NCBI RefSeq assembly: GCF_056746865.1
Contig: NZ_CM163382.1
DNA length: 64,000 nucleotides
Direction: 5' to 3' (one strand)
In this document: in pieces, positions 10,509-10,543 of the stretch
How positions within the stretch are numbered: position 1 is the first letter of the stretch
Layout: every line of letters begins with the position of its first letter
The notes under the pieces: generated by a model
What the model was told of the DNA's origin: nothing
What the model saw: the letters and a program-made list of their open reading frames with translations, nothing else
Database searches by the model: none
Translations under genes and position numbers: made by a program

Positions 10509-10543
10509 ACTGTAAAGCCGGAGACATGCTCCGGCTTTACAGT
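10509..10543. repeat. perfect 15-bp inverted repeat with 5-nt loop (ACTGTAAAGCCGGAG/ACATG/CTCCGGCTTTACAGT) in the yjhF-yjhU intergenic region
   Basis: Read directly from the sequence; no U-tract on either strand, so this is not a canonical intrinsic terminator; possibly REP-like or a protein-binding site. Confidence 0.5.

Follow-up and report, generated by a model that had tools for sequence, protein, structure and literature searches.

A perfect 17-bp palindrome between yjhF and yjhU of Escherichia coli, a candidate 3' stem-loop of the yjhF transcript

The spacer between yjhF and yjhU in the leuX island of E. coli contains a perfect palindrome (10507-10545, both strands), which consists of two 17-nt arms at 10507-10523 and 10529-10545 and the loop ACATG at 10524-10528. 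All positions refer to the window, the whole stretch of 64,000 nucleotides that was analyzed, which is a segment of the leuX island. The job of the palindrome is most likely an ordinary one, namely capping and insulating the end of the yjhF message. In its specific form, in which a 3' stem-loop without a U-tract on the yjhF transcript would block exonucleases and also act as a weak bidirectional terminator or insulator, this reading is held with about even confidence.

Results and discussion

Position and stability of the palindrome

The sequence ACTGTAAAGCCGGAG-ACATG-CTCCGGCTTTACAGT, originally predicted as a perfect 15-bp inverted repeat, was found at exactly 10509-10543 of the window. The repeat is real and perfect, but its stem is longer than predicted, with two extra pairs per side making 17 bp, and the arms were 100% complementary. 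Among perfect stems with loops of 3-10 nt, it was the longest in the 64 kb of the window. The chance maxima for perfect stems in 100 Markov-1 simulated 64-kb sequences were 8-12 bp, and the palindrome is far beyond chance expectation. Among all 44-nt folds of the window it also ranked first in stability on both strands (-28.8 and -28.5 kcal/mol), and the free energy of the RNA hairpin by itself was -28.2 kcal/mol on the plus strand and -27.4 kcal/mol on the minus strand.

The window is identical from 4371 to 29409 to strain FDAARGOS_497, which was the source of the RefSeq gene annotation. The genes mtnK, mtnA, an aldolase gene and the gene of a GRP-family transporter are arranged in this order on the plus strand, and after the transporter yjhU, yjhF, yjhG, yjhH and yjhI follow on the minus strand. 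The gene yjhF (10695-12044, minus strand) encodes a GntP-family permease and putative xylonate transporter, as assigned from the RefSeq annotation of the identical DNA and from homologues, and it is presumed to be the xylonate transporter accompanying the xylonate genes yjhIHG (PMC13279387). The product of yjhU (9362-10348, minus strand), annotated as a SorC/DeoR-type regulator, is MtnR, which was recently shown to be the repressor of the mtnK-mtnA-ald2-transporter operon of the DHAP shunt and represses mtnK P1 about 30-fold (PMC12632272). The predicted placement of the repeat between these two minus-strand genes agrees with this annotation. Between the yjhF stop codon and the hairpin are 149 nt, and a further 158 nt separate the hairpin from the GTG start codon of yjhU. 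The constitutive sigma-70 promoter of yjhU known from Genomic SELEX, TTAAGA-15-TTTAAT (PMC3946193), has a unique match in the window at 10363-10389 on the minus strand, so the hairpin is located between the end of yjhF and the yjhU promoter, at least 117 nt (about 120-160 bp) upstream of the latter.

Two differences of mobile elements from FDAARGOS_497 were also observed. An IS21-family element (ISSso4-like istA/istB, minus strand) at 1734-4370, inserted at a truncated cbtA toxin gene, is absent from the otherwise identical FDAARGOS_497, and the IS2 interrupting nanM in that strain is missing from the window.

A proposed 3' stem-loop capping the yjhF message

As a 3' cap, the palindrome would act at the RNA level on the minus (yjhF-sense) strand. 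The yjhF transcripts would run 149 nt past the stop codon, through a 3' untranslated region at 10546-10694 (minus strand), and form a stem-loop with 17 bp and about -27 kcal/mol. Because the full stem is without a following U-tract, this stem-loop would be at best a leaky intrinsic terminator, working via its GCCGGAG core and UUU, and its main effect would be to block the 3'-to-5' exonucleases PNPase and RNase II. The stable 3' end of yjhF would then be set after diffuse or Rho-dependent termination further downstream, and the xylonate-induced transcription would be separated from the independently promoted yjhU/mtnR. Since the hairpin is symmetric, antisense transcripts from the yjhU side could be treated likewise. 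We infer that yjhF transcripts reach the hairpin, that their 3' ends lie at its foot and that it is relevant to expression.

Nearly all Rho-dependent transcripts of E. coli end just after stable stem-loops lacking U-tracts, which protect against PNPase and RNase II and have rut-like sequence with C in excess of G directly downstream (Dar & Sorek 2018, PMC6061677). In common with the members of this protective class (PMC6061677), the palindrome forms a stable stem-loop where a gene ends, has few U downstream and is free of REP sequence. Its folding energy is equal to or beyond that of intrinsic terminators, and its position suits a steady-state 3' end. The palindrome differs from them in its unusually long and perfect stem and in having no enrichment of C over G directly downstream, where the minus-strand RNA is G-rich (C/G of 0.45-0.7 over ~60 nt). 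A small bubble with C exceeding G occurs in the minus-strand RNA at 10391-10450, and the C/G ratio of the yjhF 3' untranslated region is mildly above 1 over the first ~70 nt past the stop codon. With the REP/BIME intercistronic stabilizers, for example that of malE-malF, the palindrome shares an extragenic position between co-directional genes and a possible stabilizing effect on the upstream mRNA, but it is single-copy and unrelated to the REP consensus; the true REPs of the window are located elsewhere (~40999-41042 and 45719-45762).

The site of the hairpin, after the yjhF stop codon and before the yjhU promoter at 10363-10389, is where an operon-end structure is expected, which favors the 3' cap, as does the retention of the hairpin together with yjhF in the 12.8-kb deletion of strain 2452 described below. 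Further points in its favor are the perfect 17-bp stem, which is the strongest fold in the 64 kb, the hairpins that follow yjhF orthologues in other genera and the lack of a second terminator-like site ahead of the hairpin. Against the 3' cap, the yjhF-sense RNA just past the hairpin is G-rich and without the rut signature, about 39% of the carrier genomes have an uncompensated C.A mismatch in the yjhF-sense RNA (C10518T), and the hairpin is not conserved outside E. coli. Of the three roles put forward in the original prediction, that of an RNA stability element at the yjhF 3' end fared best, its support coming from position, thermodynamics and the analogy with published E. coli 3'-end maps.

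The Term-seq supplements of Adams 2021 had no 3' end at MG1655 45203xx-45207xx, under conditions that were probably without yjhF expression, and no entry for the hairpin interval was found in the supplements of TERMITe and SMRT-Cappable-seq. The yjhF gene is probably unexpressed without xylonate, and since it needs induction by xylonate, these missing 3' ends represent an absence of data, not counter-evidence. In the same neighborhood, Term-seq detected a strong 3' end inside the yjhU coding region at MG1655 4520003 (minus strand) and a bicyclomycin-sensitive 3' end antisense to yjhF at MG1655 4521428 (plus strand) (Adams 2021, PMC7815308). The latter, located inside yjhF, is the sole Rho-dependent 3' end in the vicinity. 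The plus strand around the hairpin is C-rich and G-poor and thus rut-like.

The yjhF orthologues of other genera have unrelated hairpins at the equivalent place. The orthologue of Phytobacter (89% identical) ends in a U-less hairpin, GACAGCCCCGG...CCGGGGCTGTC, immediately past the stop codon, and in a metagenomic orthologue (83% identical) a canonical terminator, AAGCCTGC-CAGT-GCAGGCTTTTT, stands ~165 nt downstream of the stop. Hairpins are thus the rule after yjhF, but the particular sequence of the palindrome is specific to E. coli.

If the 3' cap is real, the palindrome adds a further example to the 3' stem-loops without U-tracts with which many E. coli messages end. It would also mark the boundary of two sugar-acid modules acquired horizontally, for xylonate catabolism and for the 5'-deoxynucleoside DHAP shunt, which answer to different signals, and the mtnR promoter is probably insulated from the yjhF transcript. 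The practical value is modest and lies in a probable transcript end of yjhF that could be used in xylonate engineering with yjhIHGF or in studies of MtnR.

The predicted fold of the spacer RNA contained a further pairing, between 10497-10506 (CTGTTCCCCC) and 10652-10660 (GGGGGACAG) with one bulge, which would close a multiloop around the 17-bp hairpin and the greater part of the yjhF 3' untranslated region. The z-scores of the whole-spacer RNA fold were -4.4 and -4.3 on the two strands, and the predicted multiloop pairing may be due to chance.

Variation of the hairpin among E. coli genomes

Among 5426 complete E. coli genomes, the same 1602 carried both the 346-bp spacer and the hairpin, represented by a 43-mer, at one locus in each. 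Two main haplotypes of the spacer were found, which differ at four sites, and one of these is C10518T (C>T at 10518) inside the left arm, located in the sequences L003, L004 and L021. This variant falls in the band of genomes with one mismatch to the hairpin, which comprises 619 of the 1602 carriers (~39%). It gives a G.U pair in the plus-strand RNA and a C.A mismatch in the yjhF-sense RNA, and it weakens the minus-strand hairpin from -27.4 to -20.2 kcal/mol. A dedicated query for the compensated double mutant returned no perfect match in any of the 1602 genomes. With two haplotypes only, no covariation could be seen, and the single SNP of the stem stays uncompensated throughout; selection on the hairpin therefore looks weak. 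In addition, the hairpin was not visibly better conserved than its flanks, as one of the four haplotype SNPs of the 346-bp spacer lies inside it. The T allele seems to be the derived one, since the degenerate copy of the left arm described in the next section carries C at the position equivalent to 10518.

In strain 2452 (L002 5880-6060), a 12.8-kb deletion extends between the agn43 leader and 10507/10508, with 2-nt microhomology (TA) at the junction, and it is unique among the 5426 genomes. Via this deletion yjhU and the DHAP-shunt genes are lost, while 16 of the 17 stem pairs stay beside yjhF. The endpoint at the foot of the palindrome may reflect either hairpin-associated breakage or coincidence. 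In nine genomes, the spacer was split into two places with the hairpin intact, probably by IS insertions.

Possible neutral origin of the palindrome

The weak signs of selection are also what would be seen if the palindrome were a neutral by-product, in which a template-switch (fold-back) mutation extended an older short quasi-palindrome, GAG-ACATG-CTC, and the product was kept without a selected function. A degenerate relative of the older sequence would then survive at 10355-10382, and any effect on RNA would be incidental. We regard this origin without function as possible but unlikely.

The putative relative, copy A (ATACCTGTATTAAACCGGGGAAATGCTC, 10355-10382, plus strand), is a degenerate direct copy of the left arm, the loop and the first 3 nt of the right arm, and it overlaps the yjhU promoter. 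The alignment of 10507-10531 with 10355-10382 pairs ATACCTGTATTAAACCGGGGAAATGCTC with ATA-CTGTA--AAGCCGGAGACATGCTC. Its local alignment score of 23 was reached by none of 500 dinucleotide shuffles, and the best score among 422 real 152-nt segments of the window was 21. A weaker arm-like copy, copy B (CTGTTTACCCGGAG, 10392-10405, plus strand), was not significant alone (300 of 1000 shuffles). The arm-only similarity was not significant for either copy, and copy A reached significance only as arm plus loop. Because the similarity of copy A passes through the loop and ends where the right arm proper starts, common descent is the simplest reading.

In addition to this significant direct copy, 152 bp away and without the rest of the right arm, the neutral origin is favored by the perfect identity of the arms, as a recent templated event would give, by the confinement of the element to one E. 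coli island, by the common arm-breaking SNP without compensation and by the conservation of the hairpin, which is no higher than that of its flanks. However, copy A shows moderate similarity (empirical p about 0.002), which was noticed post hoc, and no outgroup sequence shows the state before the palindrome. Moreover, origin and function are compatible, since a hairpin of -27 kcal/mol in a transcribed 3' untranslated region impedes exonucleases regardless of its history.

Possible DNA operator of MtnR or another factor

The overlap of copy A with the yjhU promoter also bears on the DNA-level role in the original prediction, that of a factor-binding palindrome. Here, the palindrome and the arm-like copies on the yjhU promoter would be bound by MtnR/YjhU or another transcription factor, in one version for autoregulation of MtnR, perhaps through looping or by a roadblock that halts read-through from yjhF. 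Our results make such an operator improbable, and for YjhU/MtnR in particular the factor-binding palindrome was disfavored by the lack of a half-site at the mtnK promoter, of the palindrome in orthologous loci and of ChIP-exo peaks.

The palindrome does lie upstream of the yjhU start, and the pattern CTGT-N3-7-CCGGRG, which was defined post hoc, occurs four times in the 64 kb, all within 10359-10542, against 0.9 expected, with one copy overlapping the spacer and the -10 element of the yjhU promoter. Operators of the SorC family are compact sites of 39-45 bp at the promoter, with short dyads; that of B. subtilis DeoR consists of a palindrome plus a direct repeat at the promoter and that of CggR of tandem repeats (PMC11229326). 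The 39-bp length of the palindrome resembles them, as does the presence of an arm-like direct copy within a promoter that serves a SorC/DeoR-type regulator gene. However, the parts here are ~150 bp apart and not contiguous. The distance from the palindrome to the promoter, which is downstream of it, is ~120-160 bp, with at least 117 bp to the published -35 element, although the degenerate half-copy does overlap the promoter. The 17-bp arms are also without the short internal dyads of SorC half-operators.

The proven target of MtnR gave no support for the operator either. No arm-like site with up to 3 mismatches was found near mtnK P1, and the best local alignment at mtnK was not significant (380 of 500 shuffles). 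Neither the palindrome nor CTGT-N3-7-CCGGRG occurred at any point of the DHAP-shunt loci of Providencia, a metagenomic relative and Vibrio, whose MtnR orthologues are 89%, 90% and 79% identical, respectively, and which retain the mtnK-mtnA-aldolase-transporter/mtnR arrangement. YjhU ChIP-exo in K-12, which bears the palindrome, showed no peaks, and its authors noted that the factor may be inactive in that condition (PMC6237786). Further points against the operator are the loss of CCGG from one arm through C10518T in 39% of the genomes and the lack of significance of copy B.

By analogy with B. subtilis DeoR, an operator of a palindrome plus a direct repeat stretched over ~150 bp might let MtnR or another factor autoregulate mtnR by looping, by a roadblock against xylonate-induced read-through, or by both. 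This version is a long shot. If it were true, one sequence would combine the roles of RNA 3'-end cap and DNA operator, and for those seeking the MtnR binding site, the half-copy at the mtnR promoter offers a cheap lead.

The conserved core of the mtnK promoters is a different motif, which also argues against the palindrome as the MtnR site. The mtnK promoters of E. coli, Providencia and the metagenomic relative (window 5066-5120; L017 11245-11420; L018 6485-6660) align well and have in common ACATGT-like hexamers, 21-23 bp apart around the published P1 start site. These hexamers are located at 5068-5073, 5089-5094 and 5112-5117 in E. coli, and the metagenomic relative has three clean copies of ACACATGT. 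The comparison suggests that the ACATGT-like repeats at mtnK P1 are more promising than the palindrome as the MtnR operator. An 11-mer, ATTTTATACAG, is common to the mtnK promoter region (5045-5055) and the region upstream of yjhU (10432-10442), where it forms an imperfect inverted repeat with 10355-10368. Such a match was reached by 13 of 500 shuffles, and the 11-mer was not conserved in the mtnK promoters of Providencia or the metagenomic relative.

The ends of the arms resemble half-sites of LexA (TACTGTA...TACAGTA) and TyrR (TGTAAA...TTTACA). LexA and TyrR boxes were rejected, as the spacing is about 17 nt too long.

Terminator character

The lack of a U-tract noted in the original prediction was right for the full stem, which has GGGGGAACAG as its minus-strand tail and TACTGAGAAT as its plus-strand tail; it runs on into GGGGGAAC (minus) or TACTGAGA (plus). 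Inside the stem, a 7-bp GC core, GCCGGAG/CTCCGGC (10517-10535, both strands), forms a terminator-like part with free energies of -12.5 and -11.7 kcal/mol. The core is flanked by AAA at 10514-10516 and TTT at 10536-10538, which gives a weak tail, TTTACAGTAT, on both strands. The palindrome is a sub-threshold, symmetric terminator-like structure.

A functional Rho-independent terminator, possibly bidirectional and working despite the poor U-tract, is nevertheless very improbable. As in canonical intrinsic and bidirectional terminators, a GC-rich core with a short 5-nt loop stands at a gene end, 149 nt past the yjhF stop, and the TTT and the upstream AAA are symmetric on both strands and lengthen the stem. 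The d-scores of the core with TTTACAGTAT, calculated with a d'Aubenton-Carafa-type formula and with the stem taken as the GC core only, were -5.7 on the plus strand and -10.7 on the minus strand, just below the threshold. Although only slightly under zero, these scores are negative on both strands. In place of a U-rich tract of ~7-8 nt directly 3' of the stem, the core is followed by UUUACAGU, with just 4 U in the first 8 nt, and the T-run itself is 3 nt only. In addition, the bicyclomycin-sensitive plus-strand 3' end antisense to yjhF may indicate plus-strand transcription downstream of the hairpin.

A scan with the consensus of terminators did not call the palindrome, which has no canonical terminator signature, and in the stretch from the yjhF stop codon to the hairpin it made no other call. 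The same scan did call the site at 9326-9349, between the convergent GRP-transporter gene and yjhU, which is a bidirectional terminator of the classical type, in which CTGCCCCAT...ATGGGGCAG is accompanied by T-runs on both strands.

Copy number and distribution

The last role in the original prediction, a non-canonical or dispersed repeat, was refuted by the genome-wide search. BLAST of the 43-mer and of a 66-mer against E. coli genomes, plasmids and phages placed the palindrome at one locus per genome, so it is single-copy and locus-specific. The outcome named beforehand as refuting the original prediction, a common dispersed repeat, therefore did not occur. A mobile-element terminus or att site was ruled out by the absence of a transposase and of a target duplication and by the single copy. 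No Rfam family was assigned, the best overlapping match being RT-12, whose 18.5 bits (E = 5.3) fell short of the gathering score of 44.2.

Outside E. coli, one genome per species was scanned across 100,044 species with an exact pattern that allowed the known variant. The six pattern matches were unrelated hairpins, among them a hairpin of convergent genes in Superficieibacter, and the palindrome was found in none of these other species. The phages searched gave zero matches. A scan of metagenomes with the pattern AATACTGTAAAGN{13,21}CTTTACAGTATT returned three unrelated AT-rich sequences. It was uninformative, since the pattern required 12-nt symmetric ends and was incapable of matching the E. 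coli locus itself, with its 17-bp stem and asymmetric flanks (C...T).

The hairpin was on a true plasmid in none of the 1602 carrier genomes of E. coli. The only plasmid match outside E. coli was an E. coli-derived fragment, flanked by two IS26 copies, on an IncFIB plasmid of Citrobacter freundii (NZ_CP099223.1; L012 27789-43854). This fragment contains a truncated yjhU, the hairpin, yjhF, yjhG, yjhH and yjhI, and it is 99.2% identical to E. coli. The xylonate module is thus undergoing mobilization between genera.
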